Part shown: positions 1 to 13,578 of the stretch, piece after piece
Numbering within the stretch: position 1 is the first letter of the stretch
Layout: the number at the start of each line of letters is the position of its first letter
Source of the DNA: Dehalococcoidia bacterium
Lineage (GTDB): Bacteria; Chloroflexota; Dehalococcoidia; GIF9; AB-539-J10
Assembly (NCBI GenBank): GCA_030612025.1
Contig: JAUWOR010000016.1
Coordinates: 1 to 13,578, forward strand
Reading direction: 5' to 3'
DNA: 13,578 nt
Notes under the pieces: model-generated
Told to the model about the DNA's origin: nothing
What the model saw: only the letters and a program-made list of their open reading frames with translations
The model's database searches: none
Made by a program: the position numbers and the translations under genes

Positions 1-61
1 AGTCTATTCTAATTGAAGAATGAGCCTGAATAAAGGGGTTTCAGGCAACCCGGTTAACATT

Positions 62-81
62 AACAAATCTTGAGATTTGTT
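62..81. promoter_or_regulatory. Perfect 9-bp inverted repeat AACAAATCT-TG-AGATTTGTT, candidate transcription-factor operator
   Basis: Arms 62-70 and 73-81 are exact reverse complements. The 2-nt spacer is too tight for an RNA hairpin and suits a dimeric DNA-binding protein site. Confidence 0.4.
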
Positions 82-118
82 GAAAGAGACTCGTACTTGA
101 TTTAACGTGGAAGAAAAA

Positions 119-172
119 CTAGTATTTGAATTTCAATCCATAATCAACCAGTTCCCTCTTAGCTTTTTCATA
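119..172 (-). pseudogene. 3'-terminal relic of a second mtmB-like gene
   Basis: Minus strand reads YEKAKRELVDYGLKFKY*, versus YEKAKKELADYGLNFKY* at the end of the 3277..4647 gene. 48/54 nt are identical to 3277..3330. An in-frame TAA lies immediately upstream (173-175). Confidence 0.85.
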
Positions 173-600
173 TTAAGATTTCAGAGTTTCGACAGCGCCA
201 TCTTGAATGCTCGACACCCACATGAGAATGAAAACGACGCTCACGGCGGTAATAAATCAGTCATTGTTTGTCCCAAGAAGTTAAGATTCTACCTGAGAAC
301 AAAATCTCTTTACCCTCCTGTCAGAGCACTCAAAAAGACTTATGTTTTCGTGCTAACCTTGCAGCTAGCCATAGGCCAGTTCATACCATCTTGAGCTGAC
401 TAATTCCTTGGTGTCTCCTTTTTTGTAGCTACCCGAATTCTTTCCCTCCTTGCATTCGCACTGAGCAAATTAGTATTTTTGAGTTAGAATTTCGTAGGTA
501 TCAGGCCTTTTGTCTTATGCTCGTTCACAGGATTAGTGACGCCTCACCTTCTTTTTTTTGATTTTGTTGGCTGATAGTGCCTCTTACCCTCACTAATGAA

Positions 601-1863
601 TTATGAGATAGCTACCTCCTTTAAAACTGTTTCGTGGAACTTCAGAGGCCAGCCTATATCGGCCATTATTTTCAGGAATTTCATCGGGTCAAGGCATTCA
701 GCGGGAATTACTCCTCTTTCTGCATTGCCTTCCGCACACATCTTTGCTCCTACAATTGCTGGTAAAGCAACGGCTATATTCCTTGCTCCAAATCTTTTAT
801 ATACCTCCAACCCCTCTTCAGCACTTGTAACAAGGGAATAAGGCCAGGATAGTGTATATGTGACATCTTCTCCCGATTTAGCTCCCTTTATCTCTATTAC
901 AATAGAGTTAAACCCGAACGGAAGCTTGCCAGTGCTTTCATCCTCAGTGAAAAAATCCTCAGCTGGATGAGGCACCAATTTCAGTAAAACGTCACGTGGC
1001 ACAACCTTCACACCCTTTACATTTATCGCTTCCGAGTTAGCAAACCCCATCTTAACAAAAGCGCCCGCCAGAAAGTCGACCGGGAATTTGAAAGCACAAT
1101 ACTTAACACCTTTACCTATGTAACGTGGCAGTGTTATCGCTTCTTGGTGTTGATGGTAAGAAATTAAAACTGGACCAACTGGGTCTGGGAAATTATACTC
1201 TTCGCAACTACTAAAGCGAGGGTATTTCTTATACTTCCCATCTTCGAATACTGTAGGCTCAACTGCATAACCCCAAAGTGCTCTAAAAGGAGACCATCCC
1301 GGATCCCAGGCACTAACCACTTCCTCAGGCCTTTTTGGGACTTTTGCGCCAAACCTAATATGTATTTCATCCACACGGTCCAATTTATCACAACCATATC
1401 TAGCTAATACATTAGTGACTCCAGGAGATCCTCCGCAACCAACTAAGGCTGTCAAACCAGCCTTTTTGAACTCATTATCAAGTTCAAGTGGTCGGTTTTC
1501 TATTATCTGTGACAAGATATTATCTCTGGCAAGTATGTCTAACAAGCTAGGCTCGCCAAAAGATGTATCCACATAGTGAGCACCGCTTTTTAAGGCAGCT
1601 TTCATTATATTTGAGTTGAAAGCGGTCAATGTCAGATTAATAATGGCATCTACTCCCTTAGCTGCTCTCTCAATGTCCTCAACCTTTCCGGCGTCAACCT
1701 TTATAGTGGTAATTTTATCGCTTTTTATTTTGCTTTTAACCTTATTGGCTAAATCTAGATCTATATCACTTAAAACTATTTCTGCTATATCCTTGTCCCT
1801 AGCCAGAATTGAAGCACATGGACCACCTTGTCCCCCAGCTCCTACTATCAATACTTTCTTCAT
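601..1863 (-). CDS. Saccharopine dehydrogenase / carboxynorspermidine dehydrogenase-family NAD(P)-dependent C-N oxidoreductase
   Basis: N-terminal Rossmann motif VLIVGAGGQG with an acidic residue in LSDID. Family-type segments HYVDTS, GCGGSPGVTN and ERGVIPAE. RBS AAGGAGG upstream of ATG. Confidence 0.85.
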   Translation of the reverse strand: MKKVLIVGAGGQGGPCASILARDKDIAEIVLSDIDLDLANKVKSKIKSDKITTIKVDAGKVEDIERAAKGVDAIINLTLTAFNSNIMKAALKSGAHYVDTSFGEPSLLDILARDNILSQIIENRPLELDNEFKKAGLTALVGCGGSPGVTNVLARYGCDKLDRVDEIHIRFGAKVPKRPEEVVSAWDPGWSPFRALWGYAVEPTVFEDGKYKKYPRFSSCEEYNFPDPVGPVLISYHQHQEAITLPRYIGKGVKYCAFKFPVDFLAGAFVKMGFANSEAINVKGVKVVPRDVLLKLVPHPAEDFFTEDESTGKLPFGFNSIVIEIKGAKSGEDVTYTLSWPYSLVTSAEEGLEVYKRFGARNIAVALPAIVGAKMCAEGNAERGVIPAECLDPMKFLKIMADIGWPLKFHETVLKEVAIS

Positions 1864-1921
1864 TTATTCCTCCTTTTCCATTTAAATTTGAAATCTATTT
1901 ATAGTATGGTTCTCTCTATTT

Positions 1922-1959
1922 TGGACTGCACCCCTATGATTGGACAGAAAGGGTTAGGA
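1922..1959. repeat. IS right inverted repeat (IRR)
   Basis: TGGACTGCACCCCTATGATTGGACAGAAAGGGTTAGGA aligns with the reverse complement of 3184-3221 (TGGAGTGAACCCCTGAAGCTGGACACATTAGGTTAGGA). Confidence 0.9.
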
Positions 1960-2877
1960 GAGTTTGACGGGATTCCTCCTTTCTATTCTCTTTCATAGCC
2001 AGTAATGCCTCGAACTCATCAGGTGGCCGATAACCCAGTGCCGAATGAAGTCTCTTATGATTATAGACTTCCTGGATGAAACAGGGAAGCCTGGTCATCA
2101 CATCCTCCAGCGTCTCATATTCGCATAGGTATACCTCCTCATGCTTCAATGTTTTGAAAAAGCTCTCTATCCTGGCATTCTCATAAGGATTGCCTTTCTG
2201 AGCCATGCTGATCTCAAATCCGTAGCTCTTAAGTTCGTCTACGTACTCACTTGAGGCGTATTGCACTCCCTGGTCCGAGTGATGAATTATGCCAGGGCCA
2301 GGGTTACGCTCTGCTATAGCCATCTTAAATGCCTCAATTGTTAGTGAGCTATCAATCTTGGTGGAGAGGGCATAGCCTATCACCCGCCGGGAGCAAGCAT
2401 CCAATATCGCTGCCAGGTAGACAAAGCCAGTCTTGATACGGATGTAGGTAATATCACTAATCCATACCTGGTTTAACCTATTGATAACCATTCCCTTGAT
2501 GAGATTGGGATACTTGGGGAAGTGATGGTTACTATTGGTGGTTCTTACCCACTTCCGTTTGACCTGACATAAGAGGTCGCTTTCCCTCATCAAGCGCAGC
2601 ACCTTCTTATGATTTGCCCTCCATCCCTCACGCTTAAGCTGATGAGTAATCCTGCGGTAGCCATAACGGGGAAACTCAAGACAGATGGCCTCATGCGATC
2701 TACCAGGTCTGCCTCCAGCTGCATCCTGTCAGAGCTCTTGGCACCGGGTTTGCGATAGAAGCTACTCCGGGGGATGCTCATAAGTCTACACCCTTGCCGG
2801 ATACTGCTGAGGAAGTCTTTGCACCTGGTGACAAATTCCCGTTTCTCTGAGGCTGGCTGAAGCTCATCTGTAACCCC
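1934..2877 (-). pseudogene. IS3-family transposase OrfB (DDE integrase core), interrupted by an apparent 1-nt deletion at 2692/2693
   Basis: The DDE motifs WISDITY, HHSDQGVQY and NARIESFFKTLKHE are intact. The N-terminal part (SIRQGCRLMSIPRSSFY...LVDR) and the downstream part (EAICLEFPRYGYRRITHQLKREGWRANHKKVLRLMRE) are in different frames, and one added base after CGC-AT restores DRIEAIC. The ORF track splits this into 2590..2781 and 1934..2602. Confidence 0.85.
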
Positions 2878-3131
2878 TTTTTTAGAAACTCATTCTCCAG
2901 TGTCAGCCTGCCCACCAGCCGCTCCAACTTATCTACCCTGTCCCTAAGGGCAGCTTCCTCGGTGGGTTCATTATTGAACTTACCCCGACTGTATTGTTTC
3001 TTCCAATGGTAAAGTAGGCTCGGCGAGATGTTGTATCTCCGGCAGAGTTGGGCAGGACGGCTCTCTCCACTGAGTAACTCCTCTACTACCTGCCTCTTAA
3101 ATTCTATACTGAAACTTCTCTGATTCCTCAT
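2778..3131 (-). CDS. IS3-family transposase OrfA (HTH DNA-binding protein, 117 aa)
   Basis: RSFSIEFKRQVVEELL...QLCRRYNISPSLLYHWKKQY HTH followed by a coiled coil (LERLVGRLTLENEFLKK). ATG at 3131 has an AAAGGA RBS and is preferred over the track start at 3179. Confidence 0.9.
   Translation of the reverse strand: MRNQRSFSIEFKRQVVEELLSGESRPAQLCRRYNISPSLLYHWKKQYSRGKFNNEPTEEAALRDRVDKLERLVGRLTLENEFLKKGLQMSFSQPQRNGNLSPGAKTSSAVSGKGVDL
2877..2883 (-). other. A-AAA-AAG programmed -1 ribosomal frameshift site fusing OrfA to OrfB
   Basis: CTA AAA AAG lies in the orfA frame. The -1 frame is open from here (KGVTDELQPASEKREFVTRCKDFLSSIRQGCRLMSIPRSSFY) into orfB. This is the canonical IS3-family slippery heptamer. 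Confidence 0.8.
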
Positions 3132-3183
3132 GGCAAGATCCTTTCTATCCTCCATTATAGAGTATTTTGGCCCTGCCAAACCT

Positions 3184-3221
3184 TCCTAACCTAATGTGTC
3201 CAGCTTCAGGGGTTCACTCCA
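3184..3221. repeat. IS left inverted repeat (IRL)
   Basis: Reverse complement matches 1922-1959 at 27/38 positions. It ends in CA, followed by the TSD ATTT. Confidence 0.9.
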
Positions 3222-3276
3222 ATTTATTCCCACATAGGCAATAACCTTCCCATATAAATTCTCTCATGGAAGAAAG

Positions 3277-4647
3277 CTAATATTTGAAATTCAACCCATA
3301 ATCAGCCAGTTCCTTCTTAGCCTTTTCATATAAGGCTACATACTCTTTACTGGGCTGCAAAGTCTTTATGTTATAGCAGTCCTGGTATCTCTTGCCCTCA
3401 GGAGGGTTATCAAGATTACCTTCGTACTTCGATAAAAGTTTGTTTACTATTTCATTTGCCTTAGTCCTTTTCATTCCAACCGCCGCATGAGCAACTTCCG
3501 CGGTCCATTTGGATATCATGGGACTAAGGTGATCTATGAGGGCATTTTTAGCACCACCAGGAGCCTCGATAGAACTACCGGAAACTACAGATGCGATTAC
3601 ACGAGCAGCGTTTTCATAAAACTCCATCTCAGTCTCAGGGCCCGCAGCTATGTTAGAAATATTAATTAACGGGAAGTGGCTATTCCTAGCGATTGCTTGA
3701 GTACCCAAGCTCATGGCTGCCAAACATGTCCTCGGTGATTCACAAGAATACATGACATGTGGTGTGCCATTATCCTGGCACGAGCCACGGAACACGAGTA
3801 TTGCCTGAATATGGTCAGCTACAACAGTTAGCGCAGTTCCTTCCGGGCCACCACAATACCCGCCCAGGATGGGAGTAGTTTCAGCTACAACATGTCCACC
3901 AAAACTAGTAACAAAGGCAATTTCATTGAGTCTTTCAAAATTAACTTTCAGCTCAGACATCGAGCCAATAAGCCAACCATCCGAAGGCCTGAGCCCAAAT
4001 TGGCTGCCAGCAATCTTTCCTTGGTCTGATACTGCTGTGGCTATGGAATTCATTACAGGTAACCCAGGCCTTCCTGCTTTTCTGAGTCCCTCTCTTAATA
4101 GAACAACACTTTTAATACAAGCTAATATTTCTAGGGGTGAACCGGCACGCACAGGGACACCATCCAATGTAGCTAATGATGGTGCAGTGAGTGAATCTGC
4201 AAAAGGAACTTCACCGTAGCCTTGCACAACGCTTTCAAATATCTCCTCGTTAGAAACTGCAGCTCCGCAAGCTCCAAGAAAACACCAGGGAGGAATATTA
4301 CTCTCTGGCTTACGTGCTACCAATGCTTTTGCTTCTTTGCCTTCACCAAATATCGGAGCTGAAGGTGCTGTTGCTAATGCTTCCCGAATCTCTGCCTCCG
4401 TAAACTGGATAATACGTTGCGTATCAACACAATATGTGCCCACATTAGCATAAAGCTCTATTCCTGCTTTAAACACCCTGTCAGCTAAATCATCATCAGA
4501 AGGTATAACGTTTTCGGGATCGTATTTGATTTCATATTTTTTAACTACTTCCCTTAATTTTGGGACAAACACCTTCAAATTGTAATCCTTCTCAGAATAA
4601 TAAGGTCCTGTCAATGCCCGATTAATAACGTCCATAAAGCTAACCAT
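3277..4647 (-). CDS. mtmB: Monomethylamine:corrinoid methyltransferase (MtmB) family protein lacking pyrrolysine
   Basis: Recognisable MtmB segments: DRVFKAG, GTYCVDTQRII.FTE.EI, AGRPG, ELK, PILGGYCGG, AGPETEM, GKRYQDCY..KT. Length is 456 aa with no in-frame TAG; the Pyl-equivalent position is Met199 (ATG at 4051-4053). Confidence 0.9.
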   Translation of the reverse strand: MVSFMDVINRALTGPYYSEKDYNLKVFVPKLREVVKKYEIKYDPENVIPSDDDLADRVFKAGIELYANVGTYCVDTQRIIQFTEAEIREALATAPSAPIFGEGKEAKALVARKPESNIPPWCFLGACGAAVSNEEIFESVVQGYGEVPFADSLTAPSLATLDGVPVRAGSPLEILACIKSVVLLREGLRKAGRPGLPVMNSIATAVSDQGKIAGSQFGLRPSDGWLIGSMSELKVNFERLNEIAFVTSFGGHVVAETTPILGGYCGGPEGTALTVVADHIQAILVFRGSCQDNGTPHVMYSCESPRTCLAAMSLGTQAIARNSHFPLINISNIAAGPETEMEFYENAARVIASVVSGSSIEAPGGAKNALIDHLSPMISKWTAEVAHAAVGMKRTKANEIVNKLLSKYEGNLDNPPEGKRYQDCYNIKTLQPSKEYVALYEKAKKELADYGLNFKY

Positions 4648-5320
4648 TACTTCTCTCCTTCATGCTCCTTTTTTTGGACATAAGTTCTAAAGCAACAGAA
4701 ACCGCGTCTTTAGCTGTCTTCCCATATCCATCAGCTCCAATCTTATCTGCCCAACTTTGGGTTACAGGCCCTCCTCCTACCATAACAATATACTCATCTC
4801 TAATCCCTGCTGCTTTTAATATATCTATAAGATCTTTTTGTCCTAACATAGTTGTAGTTAAAAGAGATGATACACCTATAATATCTGCTTTAACCTTCTC
4901 TGCTTCCTGCAAAAAAGTAGAAATCGGCACATCTTTGCCTATATTGTGCACCTCAAACCCCGCTGTTTTTAAGAGCATTGCCACAATATCTTTACCTATC
5001 TCATGAATATCTCCCTTCGCCGTACCTATCACTACAGTGCCTTTCTTCTCTATACTTTTGCCTCTGGCTAAAATTTCAGGCCCTAGTATCTCCACCGCTG
5101 CATTAAAAACATCCCCAGCCATTATGAGTTCAGGTAGGTAAATCTCTAATTTCTCAAACCGATCTCCTATTTCATTCATTCCCCTGAACAAGCCCTTTTC
5201 AATACCCTCCAATGGATCAAGTTTTTCCTTAACTAGTTTATTTGCAGCTTCTCTTCCTTTATCCTCATCCAGGTCTACAATGGCTCTGAATAGGTCTTCA
5301 AATATTTCCTCTCTTCCCAA
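4640..5320 (-). CDS. Methyltransferase cognate corrinoid (B12-binding) protein, MtmC/MttC-like
   Basis: Cap domain (IGDRFEKLEIYLPELIMA), DxHxxG motif (GDIHEIGK), SSLLTTT and VGGGP. TTG start with AAAGGAGG RBS. Overlaps the mtmB-like start by 8 nt. Confidence 0.95.
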   Translation of the reverse strand: MGREEIFEDLFRAIVDLDEDKGREAANKLVKEKLDPLEGIEKGLFRGMNEIGDRFEKLEIYLPELIMAGDVFNAAVEILGPEILARGKSIEKKGTVVIGTAKGDIHEIGKDIVAMLLKTAGFEVHNIGKDVPISTFLQEAEKVKADIIGVSSLLTTTMLGQKDLIDILKAAGIRDEYIVMVGGGPVTQSWADKIGADGYGKTAKDAVSVALELMSKKRSMKERSNG

Positions 5321-5582
5321 TAAATCCTCCTTTAATATCTTTCCTGAGAACTTAACCCCCTTATATCCTTAGGCAAGTCTGTTCTAAGCTATTTCAGCCT
5401 AACTCCTATCTCCCTGTACAAAGAACCAGCTAACTGTTGTTTTAATGGAGCCAGAGTTAGCAAACTTACAAAACCATGCTCTCTCGAATATCACGAATAT
5501 TAGCCTTGAGCAACCCTATTACTACTTTCCTTTTTTATCCCCTTCTACCAGTACAGCGGCAAGAATGCTGGTTGCCATCTTT

Positions 5583-5719
5583 TCCAATACCATAAGTATC
5601 AAAGAACTTAATAACACTTGAAACACCTTCCACATAAGCTTCCCCTTCGATGATCTTAACCTATATTAACTTTTGCTGTGCTATCTGACACTTGCTTTAT
5701 GCAAACAACAATTCCCCAT
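5583..5719 (-). pseudogene. etfB: Degenerate electron transfer flavoprotein beta-subunit (etfB) 5' relic
   Basis: ATG at 5719, then after a frameshift IVVCIKQVSDSTAKVNIG* (5712-5656), then after a second shift EAYVEGVSSVIKFFDTYGIG (5642-5583). These match the EtfB consensus MkIvVCiKQVPD...EGVps.iNPfD.yA. Not in the ORF track. Confidence 0.75.
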
Positions 5720-5778
5720 AGCTCCTTTCCTGGTCAATATGCCTAGCTTTTCCAGTCAAAAATCCTAGTTTATCCTTC

Positions 5779-7056
5779 TTACCAAGATTCAAAAGTGTAC
5801 TCTCCACGTGCCGCATCTAACACAGCGCCATGGACACCACCCATCCAAATACGAATGATTGGTAGACTTCGAAGGTATTTTTCTACATGACCACCGGTTG
5901 AATAACCATAAGACCCCATCAAGCCCATAGCTTGTCTGCAAACCCACTCAGCTACCTCGGTTCCGAAGTTCTTACAAGCAGACGATCTTGCTATTTGTTG
6001 AAGTGAGGTCGGGTCTCCATATATCTCAGGGTGATCAAACATATAAGCAACATTCAAGTAGTAACTCCTAGCGGCTTGAATTTTCATAGCCATTTCACCA
6101 ATTGTAGCAGCAAAAAGCGACCTATCTCTCACTGGTTTCCCCACAATATATCTATCCTTTAAGTAGTCTGTTGCGATTTCAAGACAGGCTTGAGCTGGAC
6201 CTAACGCCTCAGCAGCACTTTGAAAGCGTGTGGATACCATCCACTTAAGAACCCAGGCCCCTTGCCCTCCTGGTGCCCCGCTACAATATTCTTTGGGGAC
6301 TCTCACATCATCATAGTAAATGGCCCCATTTTTTGCTGTGCATACTCTACCCAGCAATTCCTCGGGTTTACTAAATGATAATCCTGGTGTATCTTTGGGA
6401 ACGTCGATAATGACTATCCCATCATCTCCCTTTTCGGGGTCCGTAGTGCAAACTGTGCTATAGATTTCGGAGCTAATGATAGGACCAGGCCATAGCTTTT
6501 GTCCATTTATTATCCACTCGTTGCCTTTGAGTTCAGCTCTCGTTTGAATGGTGCGTCCATGCTGGCAATAAACATCTTCAATATTACAACCGCCGGCAGG
6601 TTCCGTCATGGCAAAACAACCATCACAAACCTCGCCACCACAGAACAGAGAAGCAAACTTCTTCAATATTGTCTCGTTATTGACAAGCATAGCTGCTAGA
6701 ACGCCCCATACACCCGTAGCAAAATGTTCACCTATATCTGGATCTCCTCGGGCAAGTTCCTCTATGAAAATACAATAAGTTACATTAGAGGTGATCCCCA
6801 ACCCCCCATATTCCTTTGGGAACCAGGCCCTTTGCCATCCCATGTCCACGAGCTTCTTCCTAATTTCATGAAAGGTCTTTTCGGCCAATTCTCGATCGCG
6901 GTGAAAGCCACCATCTAAATCCAGGCGACGAGGCATGACCTCTCGGTCTACGAATTCATGCAACGTTTTTGCTATTACTATATCTTCCTCGGTAGCAAAT
7001 GCTTTACTGTACTTCTGAGCAGGATCTCTCAAGTCTACACTAGATGGATATTCCAT
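5779..7056 (-). CDS. Acyl-CoA dehydrogenase-fold flavoprotein with atypical active-site motifs
   Basis: FPKEYGGLG, EELARGD, CFAMTEPAGG, WIINGQKLW, YDDVRVP, MGSYGYS. RBS AAGGAGGT. Confidence 0.9.
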   Translation of the reverse strand: MEYPSSVDLRDPAQKYSKAFATEEDIVIAKTLHEFVDREVMPRRLDLDGGFHRDRELAEKTFHEIRKKLVDMGWQRAWFPKEYGGLGITSNVTYCIFIEELARGDPDIGEHFATGVWGVLAAMLVNNETILKKFASLFCGGEVCDGCFAMTEPAGGCNIEDVYCQHGRTIQTRAELKGNEWIINGQKLWPGPIISSEIYSTVCTTDPEKGDDGIVIIDVPKDTPGLSFSKPEELLGRVCTAKNGAIYYDDVRVPKEYCSGAPGGQGAWVLKWMVSTRFQSAAEALGPAQACLEIATDYLKDRYIVGKPVRDRSLFAATIGEMAMKIQAARSYYLNVAYMFDHPEIYGDPTSLQQIARSSACKNFGTEVAEWVCRQAMGLMGSYGYSTGGHVEKYLRSLPIIRIWMGGVHGAVLDAARGEYTFESW

Positions 7057-7211
7057 TTAACAACCTCCTTATCTTTATTTTTTGCAGCGAATTTCTCATC
7101 CTCCGCCCCAATGCTCTCCGCAATACCTGTTAGTTTTTGCGCCAGGAGATCATTACCAGGGTAGTAAAGTGGAAACCTACCCTCATTAAGCTCCTCAGAC
7201 AAGTAGCCAAA

Positions 7212-8450
7212 TCACCAACCTTCGTACTCTTTTTTCAGAATCTCGAGGAATACATCATAAGTTAGCACCCTTGGATTTGAGTCTAGACTTAAATTCCATG
7301 TAGCTCTTTCTGCTATTTTTGGTAAATCCTTTTCATCCACACCTAGTTCTTTTAAACTATGCGGTGCCTCAACCATGTTGATCATTTCTTTCACAGTATC
7401 TACAGATTTCAGCGCTGCAGCCTTCAGAGATAGGCCAGAGACATCCTCACCTAGAAGTTCAGCAATTCTAGCGAATTTGGCTGGGTTAGTCATGCAGTTA
7501 TATTCCATAATCCAAGGTGCAGCTAGTGCACAAGTGACCCCGTGCGGTATCACTGGACGCGGTGGATTTCCATAGACACCACCTAATGCTTCCCCTAAGC
7601 AATGCATACCAGCACAGTTAGTGCTTGAGAAAGCTACACCTCCTAAGCAAGATGCCATCATCATCCCTTCCCTGGCATCAATATCTTTGCCATTCGTATA
7701 CGCTATTGGTAAATTCTCTGCCACTAACCTAATGCCATACTCTGCCAACGCATCACAAACAGGATTTGACACATTAGCAGTATAAGCTTCAATGAGATGA
7801 CTTAAAGCATCCAAACCAGTGGACGCCGTCTGCTTCGGAGGTAAACTAATTGTGAGTTCTGGGTCATCTATGGCAACTTTTGCTGCGATACATGGCCCAC
7901 CTAGATAGGTCGCAGGACCACCTATCGCCATTTTTTCCCATTTTTCAGTATGTGTTACAACAGCCCAGGGGTTACATTCGCTCCCCGTGCCTGACGTTGT
8001 TGGAATAGTTATCAATGGAAGCGGATGAGCCTTAGCTTTAGACCCTGCAGGTCCGCACACAGTATACGAATAGTCTTGTATCGTCCCTTGGTTCGTGGCT
8101 AGTAACGCTATGCACTTGGACGTATCCATAGGGCTGCCACCACCTAATCCAATAATTACATCTGGTTTAATTTCTCTGGCAAGTTTAGTTCCTGCCTCGA
8201 CGATGGTGTCAAGCGGATTCGCTTCTACCCTATCAAACATATCATAGCCTATTCCCGCCTCTTCGAGAAGCGTAGTAACTTTTCTGGCAATTCCTGCCTC
8301 GCTAAGTCCCTGGTCAGTTACAAGTAAGGCTTTCTTATACCCCGAATCTTTGACGATCCTGCCAAGTTGTGCAACTTTACCCCGCCCAAAAACAAGCGAT
8401 GCTTGCCAATAAAATTCAAAAGACTTTAATGTTCTTTGCATTACTGTCAT
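7212..8450 (-). CDS. Iron-containing (type III) alcohol dehydrogenase, 412 aa
   Basis: GLGGGSPMD, PTTSGTGSE, and metal ligands in DALSH...HCLGE...PHG. Start moved from 8483 to ATG 8450, which follows AAAGGAGG. Confidence 0.93.
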   Translation of the reverse strand: MTVMQRTLKSFEFYWQASLVFGRGKVAQLGRIVKDSGYKKALLVTDQGLSEAGIARKVTTLLEEAGIGYDMFDRVEANPLDTIVEAGTKLAREIKPDVIIGLGGGSPMDTSKCIALLATNQGTIQDYSYTVCGPAGSKAKAHPLPLITIPTTSGTGSECNPWAVVTHTEKWEKMAIGGPATYLGGPCIAAKVAIDDPELTISLPPKQTASTGLDALSHLIEAYTANVSNPVCDALAEYGIRLVAENLPIAYTNGKDIDAREGMMMASCLGGVAFSSTNCAGMHCLGEALGGVYGNPPRPVIPHGVTCALAAPWIMEYNCMTNPAKFARIAELLGEDVSGLSLKAAALKSVDTVKEMINMVEAPHSLKELGVDEKDLPKIAERATWNLSLDSNPRVLTYDVFLEILKKEYEGW

Positions 8451-8531
8451 TTCTATTCCTCCTTTCTTTTTCAACTTCTTCATCTAAATTCACTTTTAAT
8501 CTTCTTTATTCTCTTTTATGGCTAGGAGCAC

Positions 8532-9251
8532 CTATGCCCCTAAATAAGCTTTCCTTACGCGTTCGTTATTTAACAATGCTGCACCACTATCACTCATGAC
8601 TATATTGCCTGTTTCTATGACATAACCTTTATCGGCAAGCTTAAGCGCCATGTGAGCATTTTGCTCTACCAAAACGACGGTGATTTCCATAATGGTTTTG
8701 ATAGTTTCAATTATTCTGGCAATTTCAGCGACCACCAAGGGAGCTAAACCTAGTGAAGGTTCGTCCATTAGCAGCAAGCGTGGCTTTGTCATAAGCGCCC
8801 GCGCGATTGCGAGCATCTGTCCTTCGCCGCCGCTTAAGGTTTTTGCAAGTTGATTTTGTCTCTCCTTCAGTATCGGAAAATGCCGAAACATATCTTCAAT
8901 ATCTGCCTCTACTTCAGCTCTGTTCTTTCGTAAGAAGGCACCCATGGCGAGGTTTTCTTTCACGGTCATCAGCCTGAACAGCCTCCTTCCTTCGGGGGTA
9001 AGTCCAATTCCCAAGGCAACGATGTCATGGGTTGCCGTTCTATCTATCCTCTTGCCATCAAACCAGATCTCGCCGGACGTTGCCCGTTTCACCCCAGACA
9101 CGGTCTTCAAAAAAGTGGTTTTTCCTGCACCGTTGGCCCCAATAAGAGCAACAATCGTTCCTTTTTCAGCGTATAAGGAGACGTTTCTAAGTGCTGAAAC
9201 TTTATCATAGTATACACTTAAGCCCTTGACATCGAGAAACATGCTATTCAC
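8532..9251 (-). CDS. livF: Branched-chain amino acid (HAAT) ABC transporter ATP-binding protein, LivF-like
   Basis: Walker A GANGAGKT, PEGRRLF, LSGGE, LLMDEPSLGLAP, LVEQN, C-terminal VRKAYLG. Confidence 0.92.
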   Translation of the reverse strand: MNSMFLDVKGLSVYYDKVSALRNVSLYAEKGTIVALIGANGAGKTTFLKTVSGVKRATSGEIWFDGKRIDRTATHDIVALGIGLTPEGRRLFRLMTVKENLAMGAFLRKNRAEVEADIEDMFRHFPILKERQNQLAKTLSGGEGQMLAIARALMTKPRLLLMDEPSLGLAPLVVAEIARIIETIKTIMEITVVLVEQNAHMALKLADKGYVIETGNIVMSDSGAALLNNERVRKAYLGA

Positions 9252-10005
9252 CTCCTCCCAAGTAAGCTTCGATTACAGCCTTGTCTTTACTCACTTCTGC
9301 GGGCGTACTCTCGGCAATCCTTTTCCCAAAGTTTAGAACAGTGATCTTATCGCACAGGTTCATAACAAACTTCATATTATGTTCAATCAGCAGTATAGAC
9401 ACTCCGCTATCCCGTATCTTACCAAGCAAGCTCGTCAACTCCATGCTTTCTTCTGCGTTCATGCCCGTGGCCGGTTCATCTAACATTAATAGTTTTGGTT
9501 TGACAGCCAAGGCGATAGCTATTCCAAGCTTCCTCTGATAACCATGCGGCAGGCTCGCAGCACGCTCACCTAAATATTGAGACAGGCCCAGAAACTCAAT
9601 AATTTCTATGGCCTCTCTTCTATTACTCTCTTCGCTCCCCAGTGTAGCTCGGGTACTAAGCATCTGTCCCCAGAAGCTCTCATGTGCGTGCAGGTGGCAT
9701 CCCACCAGCACGTTTTTTAGGACGTCAAACTCCCTAAACAGGACATTGGCTTGAAAGGTTCGAACGAGCCCCAATGCAGCTACTTTATCAGGTGTCAAGC
9801 CAACAATGTTCTTCCTTTCGAAGAAGATGTCCCCTGCTTCTGGAAGGTAAACACCGCTTAGCACATTAAAGAGAGTTGTCTTGCCAGCGCCGTTGGGTCC
9901 GATCAAACCCCTTATCTCTCCTTCATTAACAGTCATATCTACGTTACTAAGGGCTTCTAAACCACCGAAGTACTTACTTACCTTCCTGATTTCAAGCAAA
10001 GCCAT
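9244..10005 (-). CDS. livG: HAAT ABC transporter ATP-binding protein, LivG-like
   Basis: FGGLEAL, GPNGAGKTT, RTFQ, LPHGYQR, LDEPATGMN, IEHNM, VIEAYLG. Overlaps both neighbours. Confidence 0.92.
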   Translation of the reverse strand: MALLEIRKVSKYFGGLEALSNVDMTVNEGEIRGLIGPNGAGKTTLFNVLSGVYLPEAGDIFFERKNIVGLTPDKVAALGLVRTFQANVLFREFDVLKNVLVGCHLHAHESFWGQMLSTRATLGSEESNRREAIEIIEFLGLSQYLGERAASLPHGYQRKLGIAIALAVKPKLLMLDEPATGMNAEESMELTSLLGKIRDSGVSILLIEHNMKFVMNLCDKITVLNFGKRIAESTPAEVSKDKAVIEAYLGGGE

Positions 10006-10969
10006 CTTTTCCTAATCCCCCTTTCCTGCTTCGGGATCTTCTAATCTGTGAGCGGATCCTCTCGGGTATACTTATCAGGCCTCCAGGCAAAAACAGGACT
10101 ATCAATATCAGGATAATGCCAAAGGTTATCAGGCGGTAGAATCCCAGCGGACGAAATAGCTCATCTAACAAAGTCAAGGCAATAGCACCTACTATCGGCC
10201 CGCCAATAGCAGACAACCCTCCCACTATATTATGAACCAGACTGAATTCTGATTGCCAAATGTCGAAACTACGTGGACTTATATAGGTATGATAATGAGC
10301 ATAAAGAGCACCAGTCAAACCGGCCCAGAAGCAAGCTATAGAAAAGGTCAGAACTTTATATTTCAGGGGATTAATGCCGACATGTTGGGCTAGAGTCTCA
10401 GCTTCATGAATGCTCCATAGGTTCATGCCTACCCGAGAGCGGTTCAGCTTCCAGATGAAAACTACACAGGCCACAGTAAGTGCAACCGCTACATAGTAGT
10501 AAGCAATCCTTGATGAGAGAACCTTAGGGGGCAGGATATAGAACAGCCCATCCCAACCCCCGAAGGTTCCCCTGAAGTAAGCAAAGGTCATTTTTATGAT
10601 CTCACCAAGTGCCCAACTAGCCATGAAGAAGTAGACTGCTCTTGTCCTCATCAAGGGAATGCTCACTAGAGCCCCAATAATCCCTGCCATTAACGCCCCT
10701 AACCATATGGTAACCCCAAACGGCCAACCCAGTTTCAAGAACAGCAGGGCAGATGTATAGGCGCCGATACCCATAAAACCAGCATGAGCAAAAGAAACTA
10801 ACCCCAGAGTTGTTATAAGCCACATGCTAGTAGCCATCATCACGTTAAAAGCGATGGTTATGGCGATATGCAGAATATACTCCTCCTGGGTAATAGCAGG
10901 CCACAAAAACACCAGGATTATTAAAATCACCCCGATATGGGACTTAAGCCACTCCTTATTCATTTGCAC
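9992..10969 (-). CDS. livM: HAAT ABC transporter permease, LivM-like
   Basis: Multiple hydrophobic helices; GLVSFAHAGFMGIGAY, SRVG..L..I.E.E.LA..VGIN, GLTGALYAH, VGG, LPGGL. Start is GTG 10969 or ATG 10963. Confidence 0.9.
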   Translation of the reverse strand: MQMNKEWLKSHIGVILIILVFLWPAITQEEYILHIAITIAFNVMMATSMWLITTLGLVSFAHAGFMGIGAYTSALLFLKLGWPFGVTIWLGALMAGIIGALVSIPLMRTRAVYFFMASWALGEIIKMTFAYFRGTFGGWDGLFYILPPKVLSSRIAYYYVAVALTVACVVFIWKLNRSRVGMNLWSIHEAETLAQHVGINPLKYKVLTFSIACFWAGLTGALYAHYHTYISPRSFDIWQSEFSLVHNIVGGLSAIGGPIVGAIALTLLDELFRPLGFYRLITFGIILILIVLFLPGGLISIPERIRSQIRRSRSRKGGLGKDGFA

Positions 10970-10996
10970 CTTTCATTGCTACTCCCCTCTCCTCCA

Positions 10997-11887
10997 TTAG
11001 AGCTCCCATGCCAACCCAAACAACCCTAAGGGTTTGAATACCAGTATTATAAAAACCGTAATGAAACCCACTATGTACCCAAGTTCGGAGCTAAATAGAG
11101 TGCCAACGAAACTGTCGATCATCCCTATGATAAATGCGCCAACAATGGCACCGGGAATACTTCCTAGTCCTCCCACAATCACTATCATGAAGGCCTTCAC
11201 AGTAGCGTCAAATCCCATTGTGGGAACGATAGACGTCAACGTTCCCACCAAGCATCCAGCAACTGCTGCCAGAGCACTGCCTAGACCGAAACCCAGCATA
11301 TGGACCCGTTGCGTATTTATTCCTTGCAGAGAACTGGTCTCAGGGTCTTCAGCAACGGCACGCATTGCCCTTCCCATCTTGAACCTGTGCAGGAAAAAAT
11401 GCAGCCCCCATAGTGCAAGCCCAGCTATGGCACAAATTGTCATCCTTTCATAGCTGAGGACCCCACCCAATATCTCTACTTTACCCGTAACGACGCCTGG
11501 TATGCCTTTTTCTACTGTGCCAAAAAAGCGGAGGCCAGCACTGGATATGATAAAGATTAACGCTAAGGTCATAGCCAAGTAATCTAATATCGGTCTGTCC
11601 CGCAAGGGACGCAGAAGAACAAACTGCATTCCCATGCCTATGGCAAAAATAATGCCGCAACTTAGTGGGAGTGCTATCCAATAAGGCAATTCTGCCCTAG
11701 TACATAGATAGTAGAGACCATAAGCACCAAGCATATATAATTCACCATGAGCATACTGAACAACACGCAGAATACCAAAGATCAAGCTCAAGCCGATTGC
11801 CATCAGAGCGTATATCAAACCCAGTGATGCCCCATTTATGAACATCTGTATCCCGAGCTCTCTTAACATACCAACAACTGATTCCAT
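10997..11887 (-). CDS. livH: HAAT ABC transporter permease, LivH-like
   Basis: GLIYALMAIGLSLIFG, AHGELYMLGAY, GRAMRAVAED, GIN, VGGLGSIPGA, KPLGLFG. Confidence 0.93.
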   Translation of the reverse strand: MESVVGMLRELGIQMFINGASLGLIYALMAIGLSLIFGILRVVQYAHGELYMLGAYGLYYLCTRAELPYWIALPLSCGIIFAIGMGMQFVLLRPLRDRPILDYLAMTLALIFIISSAGLRFFGTVEKGIPGVVTGKVEILGGVLSYERMTICAIAGLALWGLHFFLHRFKMGRAMRAVAEDPETSSLQGINTQRVHMLGFGLGSALAAVAGCLVGTLTSIVPTMGFDATVKAFMIVIVGGLGSIPGAIVGAFIIGMIDSFVGTLFSSELGYIVGFITVFIILVFKPLGLFGLAWEL

Positions 11888-11934
11888 TCTTTGAACTTCC
11901 TATTCCTCCAAGACTCCACTGCGTTTTTGTGTGC

Positions 11935-13176
11935 TTAATACTCCGGTGGTAGCTCAGGAAAACCTTTTTCGAGAAGCCGCGCTACTCCATCCTCAATGAT
12001 GTAAGTATAGTTATCATAGACAACTTGTCGCGGCAGGCCATATCGTGCCTTTCCAGCAAAAATCACCTCCCCCATATAACAATCTTCCTCCCCCATCTCT
12101 ACCTTTTCTAGAGCATTCGCGACAGCGCGAGTGTCCGTAACCGTGCCGCTAGCCTCAAAAGCCTTTTTCAATGCATATGCCCACCAAGTGTACCCGCCAG
12201 ATAACTCATAGAAGTGGCCGTACTTGCGCTCAAGCTTCTCACGCATCCGCTTTTGAAAGTCTGTGAGCTCTATGCCTTCAATGTTTGTATAGTAGGGGTA
12301 GCCAGAGACGATAACATCGTCAGCGAATTCCCCGCATATCTCCAGTATAGTCGTTACCTCCCCGGCGGCCGTTGAGACAATTGGTCCCTCGTAGCCCATC
12401 TCTCGGGCTGCTTTCACGATAGAGGCAGTTGTCCCTGCTGGAAGCGGGCTGCAGATGATAAAATCAGGATTTGCTGCTAGTGCTCTTGTCACTATGGGAT
12501 AGAAATCAGTAACAGTCCACTCAAAATAAAGGTACCCAAGGTCTTCGATACCATAGTGATCCATTAGCAGTGTGTACGAATAATGGCAATCATAGCCATC
12601 CTTGTCATCCGGGCCAATGAAAAAACACGATTCTAACTTGTCTCGGCCATAGTACCTAAACATGGCGGGTATGTACTGAAAGCCCGACTCATAGTCGGTC
12701 ATTTCGAGCCTAAATCCGTAGAAATACTCAGGGCCGATAAGCTCTATGTAACCCCAGCAGGCTGCCATTGACAGTACCTCGTTGGGCTCACTGATCCCCA
12801 GCATGCCTATGGTGGTGGCTGCAGGCGTGGCAAACATGTACTTTACCTTATCCTCGAAAACCAGCCGGGTTGTAGCTGCTCTGGAATCAGCCACGACGTT
12901 TTTGCTATCATAAGTAATAACTTCCATCTTGTACGTCTCATCCCCGACTTTGATTCCGCCTGCAGCATTAATTTCTTCGGCTGCGGTCTCCCAACCTTCC
13001 ATTAAACATATACCCCAATAAGCGCACTCGCCTGATAATGGTACCGTTCCTCCGATTTTAACCGTCTTCATTGGCTTTTCTTCTTCCACTGGAGGAGCAG
13101 GCGCACACATGGGAAGAGCAAAAGCCATTAATAAAGAAACCACTAATCCCACACTAATTAACCATTTCCATCTCAT
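11935..13176 (-). CDS. HAAT (LivJ/LivK-like) ABC substrate-binding protein, probable lipoprotein, 413 aa
   Basis: Signal peptide MRWKWLISVGLVVSLLMAFALPM-C followed by a Pro-rich linker APAPP; KIGGTVPLSG..A.WG, EINAAGGI.VG, DFYP. ATG 13176 follows AAAGGAGG. The track start at 13371 is probably over-extended; an in-frame ATG at 13236 is an alternative. Confidence 0.9.
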   Translation of the reverse strand: MRWKWLISVGLVVSLLMAFALPMCAPAPPVEEEKPMKTVKIGGTVPLSGECAYWGICLMEGWETAAEEINAAGGIKVGDETYKMEVITYDSKNVVADSRAATTRLVFEDKVKYMFATPAATTIGMLGISEPNEVLSMAACWGYIELIGPEYFYGFRLEMTDYESGFQYIPAMFRYYGRDKLESCFFIGPDDKDGYDCHYSYTLLMDHYGIEDLGYLYFEWTVTDFYPIVTRALAANPDFIICSPLPAGTTASIVKAAREMGYEGPIVSTAAGEVTTILEICGEFADDVIVSGYPYYTNIEGIELTDFQKRMREKLERKYGHFYELSGGYTWWAYALKKAFEASGTVTDTRAVANALEKVEMGEEDCYMGEVIFAGKARYGLPRQVVYDNYTYIIEDGVARLLEKGFPELPPEY

Positions 13177-13239
13177 GATATTTTTTCCTCCTTTCTTAAT
13201 AATTTTCTCAGTCTTTCCTGAGAGCCAATTCTTCATAGG

Positions 13240-13347
13240 TATCACCTCCCTACTGAGCAACCAGAATCCCCGATTGCAGCGGCACAGCATACGGGACAAG
13301 GGAGGTAATATGCCAACCTTGTCAGCGCCGTTCCCCGCTGGTTGCCC
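13240..13347 (-). ncRNA. Candidate structured cis-regulatory leader RNA with an anti-SD/SD pseudoknot
   Basis: Nested helices 13347-13338/13264-13255 (10 bp), 13330-13325/13285-13280 (6 bp) and 13314-13308/13292-13286 (7 bp). TATTACCTCCCT (13310-13299) pairs with AGGGAGGTGATA (13251-13240). No known family recognised. Confidence 0.45.
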
Positions 13348-13371
13348 GATATACATAACTCTTTCCTTCAT

Positions 13372-13460
13372 TTTTAAGCTCCCTACAAAGACATAGGCCC
13401 GCCCTTGATTAGAACGAGCCTATGCAGCGTGAAAGTAAGATAAAAAAGGGAGACTTAAAA
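13372..13460 (-). other. Second nested stem-loop domain in the leader, possible attenuator
   Basis: Outer stem 13460-13447/13384-13372 (13 bp, one bulge). Inner stem 13424-13415/13401-13392 (10 bp, one G-U), followed by UCUUUGU. Confidence 0.35.
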
Positions 13461-13520
13461 CATAGATATTAATCAACTTCATTTAACTAGTATCCCCCTA
13501 AGAGCTTGCTACCTTTATTT

Positions 13521-13549
13521 ATGTTAAAGCACGGGGGGGCGGTTGTCAA
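13521..13549 (-). promoter_or_regulatory. Sigma70-type promoter for the cluster
   Basis: Perfect -35 TTGACA (13549-13544), 17-nt spacer, -10 TAACAT (13526-13521). Predicted TSS is near 13514. Confidence 0.7.
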
Positions 13550-13563
13550 TAGCTCGAATTGAC
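13545..13563. promoter_or_regulatory. Inverted repeat GTCAAT-N7-ATTGAC overlapping the -35 (operator and/or back-to-back divergent -35 boxes)
   Basis: Exact 6-bp arms at 13545-13550 and 13558-13563. The right arm also gives TTGACT on the + strand. Confidence 0.4.
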
Positions 13564-13578
13564 TCATAATTAATGTTA

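Follow-up and report, generated by a model that had tools for sequence, protein, structure and literature searches.

Among described riboswitches, SAM-II/V and preQ1-II/III are pseudoknots that sequester the Shine-Dalgarno (SD) sequence, and the HMP-PP (thiS) riboswitch is reportedly an aptamer embedded in a terminator. Molybdate transporter and molybdoenzyme genes form the classic regulon of the molybdenum/tungsten cofactor (Moco/Tuco) riboswitch. In the available part of its description, as many as five stems surround a multistem junction in the Moco motif, a GNRA tetraloop and a receptor for it are included, and the word 'pseudoknot' is absent (PMC2408646). The Dehalococcoides 'rdhA motif' (WRC-34-1) is presented, in the accessible portion of the source, with 18 representatives located directly 5' of reductive dehalogenase genes, mostly in Dehalococcoides (PMC11109978). 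Here we describe an RNA element encoded at positions 13347-13255 on the minus strand of a 13,578-nucleotide stretch of DNA (hereafter the window, meaning the whole stretch) from Dehalococcoidia bacterium (assembly GCA_030612025.1, contig JAUWOR010000016.1, positions 1 to 13,578), where it lies in the leader of a transporter operon. Judged by sequence comparison, the element is a genuine member of an RNA family of about 95–125 nt that is almost restricted to Dehalococcoidia. With moderate confidence, we interpret it as the ligand-sensing (aptamer-like) domain of an orphan riboswitch candidate, belonging to a Dehalococcoidia-confined leader RNA family outside Rfam.

Like the rdhA motif, the element is a conserved RNA of 5' leaders whose helices covary, whose junction nucleotides are invariant, and for which no ligand is known, but the present family has more than 100 members, mostly before transporter genes. 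It also differs in occurring as one copy in each of three g98 genomes (1.4–1.5 Mb), and the copy at locus L208 precedes a 26-codon hydrophobic open reading frame (ORF) instead of rdhA. As far as the available part of the rdhA motif source describes it, the present family is probably a different RNA, set apart by description and not by consensus structure. The likeness to the Moco/Tuco riboswitch (RF01055) lies in the genes, since one subtype of the family precedes molybdate ABC transporter and molybdopterin-enzyme genes. The RNAs themselves differ, the present one consisting of helices P1, P2, and P3 plus two pseudoknot helices, with no conserved tetraloop or receptor.

A 399-nt leader query searched against its own genome and 40 relatives returned ten places in the relatives that span the element wholly or in large part (in G001, G003, G004, G014, G016, and G024), plus one partial copy in its own genome. 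The nine complete copies had a mean column identity of 77% when aligned and were used to build a covariance model (R1), and a second model (R2) was built from 27 sequences. The window matched these models at 13253-13349 with 78.5 and 67.4 bits, respectively. Matches to R1 were obtained in 17 of the 119 genomes of the window's family, representing 11 of its 20 genera, and in none of the 78 genomes of the order's other families. R2 matched 5 of 151 genomes sampled across the class and 12 of 14 genomes of a second family, in which nine genomes (1.6–2.1 Mb) carry up to six copies each and three (1.4–1.5 Mb) carry one. None of the 135 genomes sampled from families outside the class matched, under stricter filters that also missed three single-copy genomes. 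A strict core pattern (GGGAAA, gap, TCCCGTG, gap, YGTAATCGGG) applied to one-genome-per-species records identified 119 stretches; among the 80 matches listed, nearly all were titled Dehalococcoidia, Dehalococcoidales, or Dehalogenimonas, and R2 confirmed 76 of these 80 fetched matches at E ≤ 0.001 (the misses being L080, L085, L108, and L120). Cultured Dehalogenimonas and Dehalococcoides strains appear to carry the element.

Rfam 15 contained no matching family at the gathering score or at E ≤ 10 for the window leader and E ≤ 5 for 14 loci of all subtypes, in agreement with the first-pass annotation of the window, which had assigned the RNA to no class. The same scans gave no match to the RF01055 model, the cobalamin models, or the covariance models of the self-cleaving ribozyme classes; they returned chance-level matches elsewhere (CRISPR-DR47, sR41, mir-21, and the like) and one tRNA. 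Full-text searches on riboswitches and RNA motifs of Dehalococcoidia and Chloroflexi, with subscription journals and unreadable supplements outside their scope, found no description of the motif, and the riboswitch passages in the available parts of PMC12415852 and PMC13390414 concern other matters. The RNA family is apparently uncatalogued.

The structure alignment comprised 97 rows (96 distinct sequences) fitted to the model's structure. Under the stored P1/P2/P3 structure, 91.1% of the cells were paired, compared with 32.0–48.0% with slid partners, and the covariation score was 0.609 versus at most 0.102 in the slid controls; none of 500 shuffles reached the observed values. The comparison shows strong covariation in the closing helix P1 and the internal helix P2: among the 96 distinct sequences, changes on both sides occurred in all ten P1 pairs, and P2 was 97.9% paired, with changes on both sides in all six pairs. 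The sequence of P1 is wholly different between lineages (GGGCAACCAG, GGCAGGGUGCU, GGGGGUAGUCA, and CCUGCCGG) with its pairing kept. Three unpaired segments are near-invariant, namely (C/G)GGGAAA after P1, CCYC-N-UCCCGUG within the loop of P2, and YGUAAUCGGG ahead of the 3' strand of P1. In the last of these, the strand joining P2 to P1 (J2/1), columns A175, U176, and C177 show no variation across the 96 sequences, and A174 is kept in 95 of them. A variable P3 hairpin is present in most members. A conserved structured domain with covarying helices, as is characteristic of riboswitches, was therefore found across the family, which bears out the earlier description of the leader as a structured riboswitch-like RNA.

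These patterns also bear on the idea that the family is a mobile or selfish repeat, of the miniature inverted-repeat transposable element (MITE) or repetitive extragenic palindrome (REP) type, with P1 as its terminal inverted repeat and no regulatory role. The family is indeed multi-copy, truncated remnants exist on contig C14 of the window's own genome, and some copies adjoin transposase, integrase, or homing-endonuclease-like ORFs. We regard such an origin as very improbable. The window's genome holds one complete copy and two remnants only, copies within a genome differ by compensatory changes instead of being near-identical, and the many near-identical copies with sequence-conserved ends expected of such repeats were not found in the family. 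Moreover, the pairing of P1 persists through a complete turnover of its sequence from lineage to lineage, with the unpaired core fixed; the fixed core together with the covarying P1 therefore indicates selection on RNA structure, not DNA-end recognition.

In the window, the helices and complementarities listed by the first-pass annotation at 13347-13240 (minus strand) can all be read directly from the sequence, and their fates in the family differ. P1 has 10 bp and P2 has 6 bp, each including one G-U pair, and both helices gained support when homologous leaders were checked for covariation. The annotated P3 (GGCAUAU at 13314-13308 with GUAUGCU at 13292-13286) did not; it was 48.6 or 64.0% paired in two registers across the family, no better than shuffles, and is common to the window and its close relative L029 only. 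The window's alignment row consists of gaps across the P3 columns, and its variable region offers only a weak UGAC/GUUG hairpin and the GGCAUAU strand. In these two members, the annotated P3 seems to replace the usual P3 hairpin. The proposed competing helix, CAGCGG (13340-13335) with CCGCUG (13282-13277), likewise failed as a family feature, being 63.3% paired, with 500 of 500 shuffles at least as high.

The pseudoknots supported by the comparison are internal to the element and join the junction G-runs to the C-rich strand of the P2 loop. In the first (PK1), the G-run after P1 likely pairs with CYC(G/C), and in the second (PK2), the G-run before the P1 3' strand likely pairs with CCCG. In the two-pseudoknot model, 96.8% of the cells were paired and 22 had changed on both sides, a level that none of 500 shuffles attained. 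PK1 involves alignment columns 16-19 with 138-141, where the pair 16-141 is CG in 22, GC in 19, and UG in 3 sequences and the pair 19-138 shows UA and CG compensations; PK2 includes one CG-to-GC compensation in the column pair 144-179 (L057). A rival register, pairing the strand between P1 and P2 (J1/2) with UCCCG and J2/1 with CCYCG, scored worse (88.8% paired and 2 cells changed on both sides). In the best-supported model, P1, PK1, and PK2 would meet at a three-way junction, and P2 would form a loop-to-loop helix. The coordinates of these parts are listed in Table 1.

Table 1. Coordinates of the RNA element, its predicted parts, and the surrounding leader features in the window
Feature	Positions	Strand	Remarks
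Promoter-like site TTGACA-17-TAACAT	13521..13549	-	Predicted by consensus scan; 10 of 12 positions match
Whole aptamer-like element	13255..13347	-	From outer P1 pair to outer P1 pair
P1 5' strand GGGCAACCAG	13338..13347	-	Pairs with 13264-13255
J1/2 strand CGGGG	13333..13337	-	5' strand of PK1 (proposed); AA follows at 13332-13331
P2 5' strand CGGCGC	13325..13330	-	Pairs with 13285-13280
Variable region	13306..13324	-	Site of the P3 hairpin in most family members
C-rich strand CCUCCCUUGUCCCG	13292..13305	-	Among the family's most conserved columns
CCUUG, proposed PK1 3' strand	13297..13301	-	Within the C-rich strand
CCCG, proposed PK2 5' strand	13292..13295	-	Within the C-rich strand
P2 3' strand GUGCCG	13280..13285	-	Pairs with 13330-13325
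J2/1 strand CUGCAAUCGGGGAUU	13265..13279	-	Includes CGGG at 13272-13269, the proposed PK2 3' strand
P1 3' strand CUGGUUGCUC	13255..13264	-	Pairs with 13347-13338
SD-like tract AGGGAGGUGAUA and AUG of short upstream frame	13234..13251	-	Tract at 13251-13240; AUG at 13236-13234
Hairpin CUCAG-GAAAGA-CUGAG	13207..13222	-	Second half of the SD-like-tract module; RNAalifold, 5 pairs
First operon gene, Peripla_BP_6 substrate-binding lipoprotein	11935..13176	-	Pfam E = 3.6e-40

A same-strand ORF starts within 700 nt of 63 of the 81 copies. The first such ORF encodes a transport component in 14 of 37 and 18 of 60 cases (two partly overlapping sets), mainly binding proteins and permeases; among the 60 first ORFs, 14 have no Pfam match and 18 are singletons of many kinds. 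The copies were sorted into subtypes roughly, by hand-made patterns. Downstream of the Dehalogenimonas-type copies, NrdJ (B12-dependent ribonucleotide reductase) was found in 8 of 13 cases, and another subtype is followed by DctP in 6 of 7; a third precedes ModA, ModB, and xanthine-dehydrogenase-type subunits, whose names were confirmed by NCBIfam. In the window operon, the binding protein is accompanied by two permeases and two ATPases of an ABC transporter; the further products are one Fe-alcohol dehydrogenase, one acyl-CoA dehydrogenase, one corrinoid protein, and one methyltransferase of the MtmB family. In other operons of the window type, TRAP or ABC transporters occur together with MTTB methyltransferases, with corrinoid proteins accompanied by their activase and by a pterin methyltransferase, and with aldehyde:ferredoxin oxidoreductases, saccharopine dehydrogenases, and peptidases. 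The suggestion of the first-pass annotation that the switch senses the pathway substrate lost ground here: a single pathway substrate is unlikely as the ligand because the same core precedes varied genes, which encode various kinds of TRAP and ABC transporters, molybdate transporters, radical SAM enzymes, corrinoid proteins, and B12-dependent ribonucleotide reductase. Such breadth favours either a general signal or cofactor or else ligands specific to each subtype.

Given these neighbours, a distant variant of a known cofactor riboswitch, either Moco/Tuco or cobalamin, has to be considered, although we judge it unlikely. In its favour, the one subtype precedes ModA (219 bits, cut-off 62.5), ModB (233–255 bits versus 182.6), and the xanthine-dehydrogenase-type subunits; another is followed by NrdJ (656 bits), a reductive dehalogenase, and a radical SAM enzyme that binds B12, and window-type operons hold corrinoid proteins and methyltransferases. 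With respect to cobalamin, genes that need B12 are the reverse of the usual riboswitch regulon, and the genes found here depend on B12 without making or importing it. In addition, no Rfam Moco or cobalamin model matched even at E ≤ 5–10, and the architecture of the Moco motif differs, as far as the available part of its description goes (PMC2408646). A related reading, which we consider rather unlikely as well, is that subtypes of a Dehalococcoidia-private scaffold report scarce metal cofactors and serve as cofactor-sensing ON switches for cofactor-dependent genes in cofactor-scavenging bacteria. One subtype would then shut off molybdate uptake and molybdoenzyme genes, another would gate the genes for B12-dependent ribonucleotide reductase, radical SAM enzymes, and dehalogenase, and the window subtype would activate operons for corrinoid-dependent methyltransferases and transporters solely in the presence of the needed cofactor.

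If the element is the ligand-sensing domain of a riboswitch, effector binding would stabilise the knotted fold and tie up the C-rich strand, whose CCUCC portion is anti-SD-like. Without effector, UAUUACCUCCCU (13310-13299) would be free to pair with the strong SD-like tract AGGGAGGUGAUA, which starts at the fourth base past P1; the two are complementary over 12 bp, including one G-U pair. Such pairing would keep ribosomes from loading at the short upstream frame and reduce operon expression, and effector-stabilised knotting would free the tract, making the window's copy an ON switch. Our confidence in the ON-switch step is low, and both the direction of switching and the ligand are guesses; ligand-dependent change would be expected around the core segments GGGAAA, UCCCGUG, and GUAAUCGGG. 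The first-pass annotation had placed precisely this pairing, as a pseudoknot between a loop-borne anti-SD and the SD, at the centre of the switch. The pairing is present in the window but is not conserved in the family, the C-rich strand of window-type members having a mean pairing energy of −9.7 kcal/mol with the 35 nt after P1 versus −8.5 kcal/mol with control windows farther downstream. The window resembles SAM-II/V and preQ1-II/III in having, within a pseudoknotted aptamer, a pyrimidine-rich strand complementary to an SD just downstream, and the family differs from them in that its conserved pseudoknots are internal to the aptamer.

Other members may have other outputs. The closing stem of the Dehalogenimonas-type copies has about 16 bp and is followed by a U-rich tract in approximately 10 of 15 copies; because a long P1 precedes a U tract, this stem could double as a terminator stem. 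The likeness to the HMP-PP (thiS) arrangement, in which the terminator role remains putative here, does not extend to the window, where no U tract follows P1 and a scan of 13100-13578 gave no terminator-like site. In some members, strong hairpins lie farther downstream and carry in their 3' strand a second copy of the AGCGGC found in the 3' strand of P1; these hairpins are candidates for riboswitch-style competing pairings involving that strand. Varied expression platforms behind one aptamer are typical of riboswitch families.

Several observations weigh against the interpretation of the element as an aptamer domain. Seven copies have at least ~2.4 kb of downstream sequence yet no same-strand ORF within 700 nt, and in the subtype with a near-invariant P1 (GCGGGCUCUGCCAG/GUGGCAUCCCGC), 12 of 32 copies lack a called ORF and the neighbours are mixed (SmpB, PPDK, a DNA methylase, and others). 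A P1 of ~16 bp, as in the Dehalogenimonas-type copies, is long for a helix that opens and closes. With respect to the anti-SD:SD pairing, 3 of 25 window-type members beat all 12 controls, the window being one of the three, and the SD-like tract with its AUG and hairpin occurs without the element in 2 of 12 leaders (L015 and L025). The alignments were fitted to the model's structure, and most sequences came from the core-fixing pattern, which accounts for the scarce variation at the pseudoknot positions. Support for the pseudoknots consists of one subgroup-level C-G to G-C swap and three single-sequence compensations (L035, L038, and L057), and L028 alone fits the rival register; with so few compensations and this exception, the pseudoknots are rated likely, not proven. 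Finally, the window's sequence folded alone was no better than shuffled sequences (minimum free energy −43.4 kcal/mol, z = −0.12, with 92 of 200 shuffles as stable), which makes single-sequence folding uninformative here.

The last result, together with a reading frame that is open from ATG 13371 through the element, is what could be said for a chance GC-rich patch or a coding N-terminal extension of the ORF at 13371-11935. We find this scarcely credible in view of the family-wide conservation and covariation, and the stretch is judged real on this comparative evidence, despite a chance-like single-sequence fold. The coding reading was also rejected on its own terms, as the element lengths modulo 3 were distributed as 38, 30, and 24 of 92 and the window's frame was open in 25 of 92.

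The mixed neighbours and the copies without a co-oriented gene nearby are in line with a conserved leader RNA that is read by a protein, another RNA, or the ribosome instead of a small molecule, or with an RNA acting on its own, for instance as a small RNA or as a self-cleaving ribozyme of unrecognised type; regulation or processing would then be independent of a metabolite. The long or sequence-conserved P1 of the two subtypes mentioned above and the presence of up to six copies per 2-Mb genome point the same way, and small ribozymes, too, typically have a compact core with two pseudoknots. This alternative is possible but doubtful. Transporter and cofactor operons are clearly enriched and the subtypes are sorted by gene class, no Rfam ribozyme or protein-binding leader family matches, and some members have the riboswitch-style competing hairpins on the P1 3' strand. 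We retain the orphan riboswitch candidate as the preferred interpretation, at the moderate confidence given above.

Dehalococcoidia include organohalide-respiring bacteria used in bioremediation as well as very abundant sub-seafloor lineages, and the regulation of their small genomes is poorly understood. Counting over 100 representatives, reaching six copies in a single genome, and having subtypes associated with different gene sets (transporters, corrinoid methyltransferase operons, molybdate uptake, and B12-dependent ribonucleotide reductase), the family would be a major regulatory device of the class. Identification of its ligand or ligands would reveal what these bacteria monitor, and the RNA would add a new doubly pseudoknotted aptamer fold.

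Turning to the window's leader as a whole, the GC content is 0.59 at 13250-13349 and 0.35–0.40 in the flanks, and a leader length of ~340 nt fits the promoter-like site; we infer that the element sits about 165 nt into the leader. The GC values, the promoter-like site, and the Peripla_BP_6 operon all agree with the earlier account of a GC-rich patch in a ~340-nt leader of a transporter operon. The start of the first operon gene is likely ATG 13176, preceded by GGAGG at 13191-13187, on account of the SD spacing and the signal-peptide-like N-terminus (MRWKWLISVGLVV...) of its product.

The SD-like tract, the AUG, and the following hairpin (13207-13251, minus strand) form a separate conserved module that was aligned in 12 leaders; one pair of the hairpin is CG in 8 sequences and UA in 3 in the RNAalifold alignment. 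As we read the alignment, the AUG is AUA in L036 and L010 and UUG in L012, where a one-base insertion gives CCUAUUG. Five of the module's short frames encode similar peptides (MxNWL(S/L)GKT...), and the others are broken by stops or frame shifts. On the 5' side of the element, the leader contains a 20-codon hydrophobic ORF (ATG 13482, stop TAG at 13422-13420, minus strand; MKLINIYVLSLPFLSYFHAA) and a 9-bp hairpin (AUAGGCUCG at 13423-13415 with CGGGCCUAU at 13401-13393, minus strand). This ORF and hairpin (13393-13482, minus strand) recur in other leaders, some of them element-free (L002 and L011). Just 5' of the promoter-like -35, the block at 13543-13578 (minus strand) shows 83–100% identity in G005, G006, G010, G011, and G016 (query positions 1-39) and may, judging from its recurrence, be a shared operator or promoter module.

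Degenerate and variant copies of the element were also observed. In the window's own genome (G000), the two remnants on contig C14, at ~80385 and 81695-81791 (L003 and L048), flank an MFS transporter gene, the first being a 5' fragment before the gene and the second, after the gene, lacking the P1 3' strand. Two further genomes of the genus carry the second remnant with its flank at the orthologous locus. Insertion of an insertion sequence (IS) into three truncated copies was considered and rejected, since the shared flank is an orthologous locus in three same-genus genomes and is followed by convergent housekeeping-type ORFs. On the same contig, a sequence of ~40 nt (82311-82361, with many other sites) recurs approximately 40 times genome-wide with 85–97% identity and may represent a REP/MITE family. 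The copy at L010 (G024:C28, ~304-418, minus strand) is degenerate: its 3' half closely matches the window element and the downstream module, and unrelated AT-rich sequence stands in place of its 5' half (the 5' strands of P1 and P2). In the three single-copy genomes of 1.4–1.5 Mb, each a single contig, the elements of L208 (G249), L209 (G272), and L211 (G323), at 1501-1617 on the minus strand, have a variant core (CCCCUGCCGUG; GUAAUCGGUUAUCGG). The L208 element, the one of the three for which ORFs were listed, lies between a response-regulator gene and the 26-codon hydrophobic ORF.

Within the window operon, the MtmB-family homologue (monomethylamine methyltransferase, PF05369; 3277-4647, minus strand) is full length and adjoins the corrinoid protein gene; it has no in-frame stop codon and hence no pyrrolysine codon. 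Between the methyltransferase and saccharopine dehydrogenase genes lies an IS3-type transposase pair (1934-3179, minus strand), composed of an HTH_Tnp_1 ORF (2778-3179) and an rve ORF (1934-2602).

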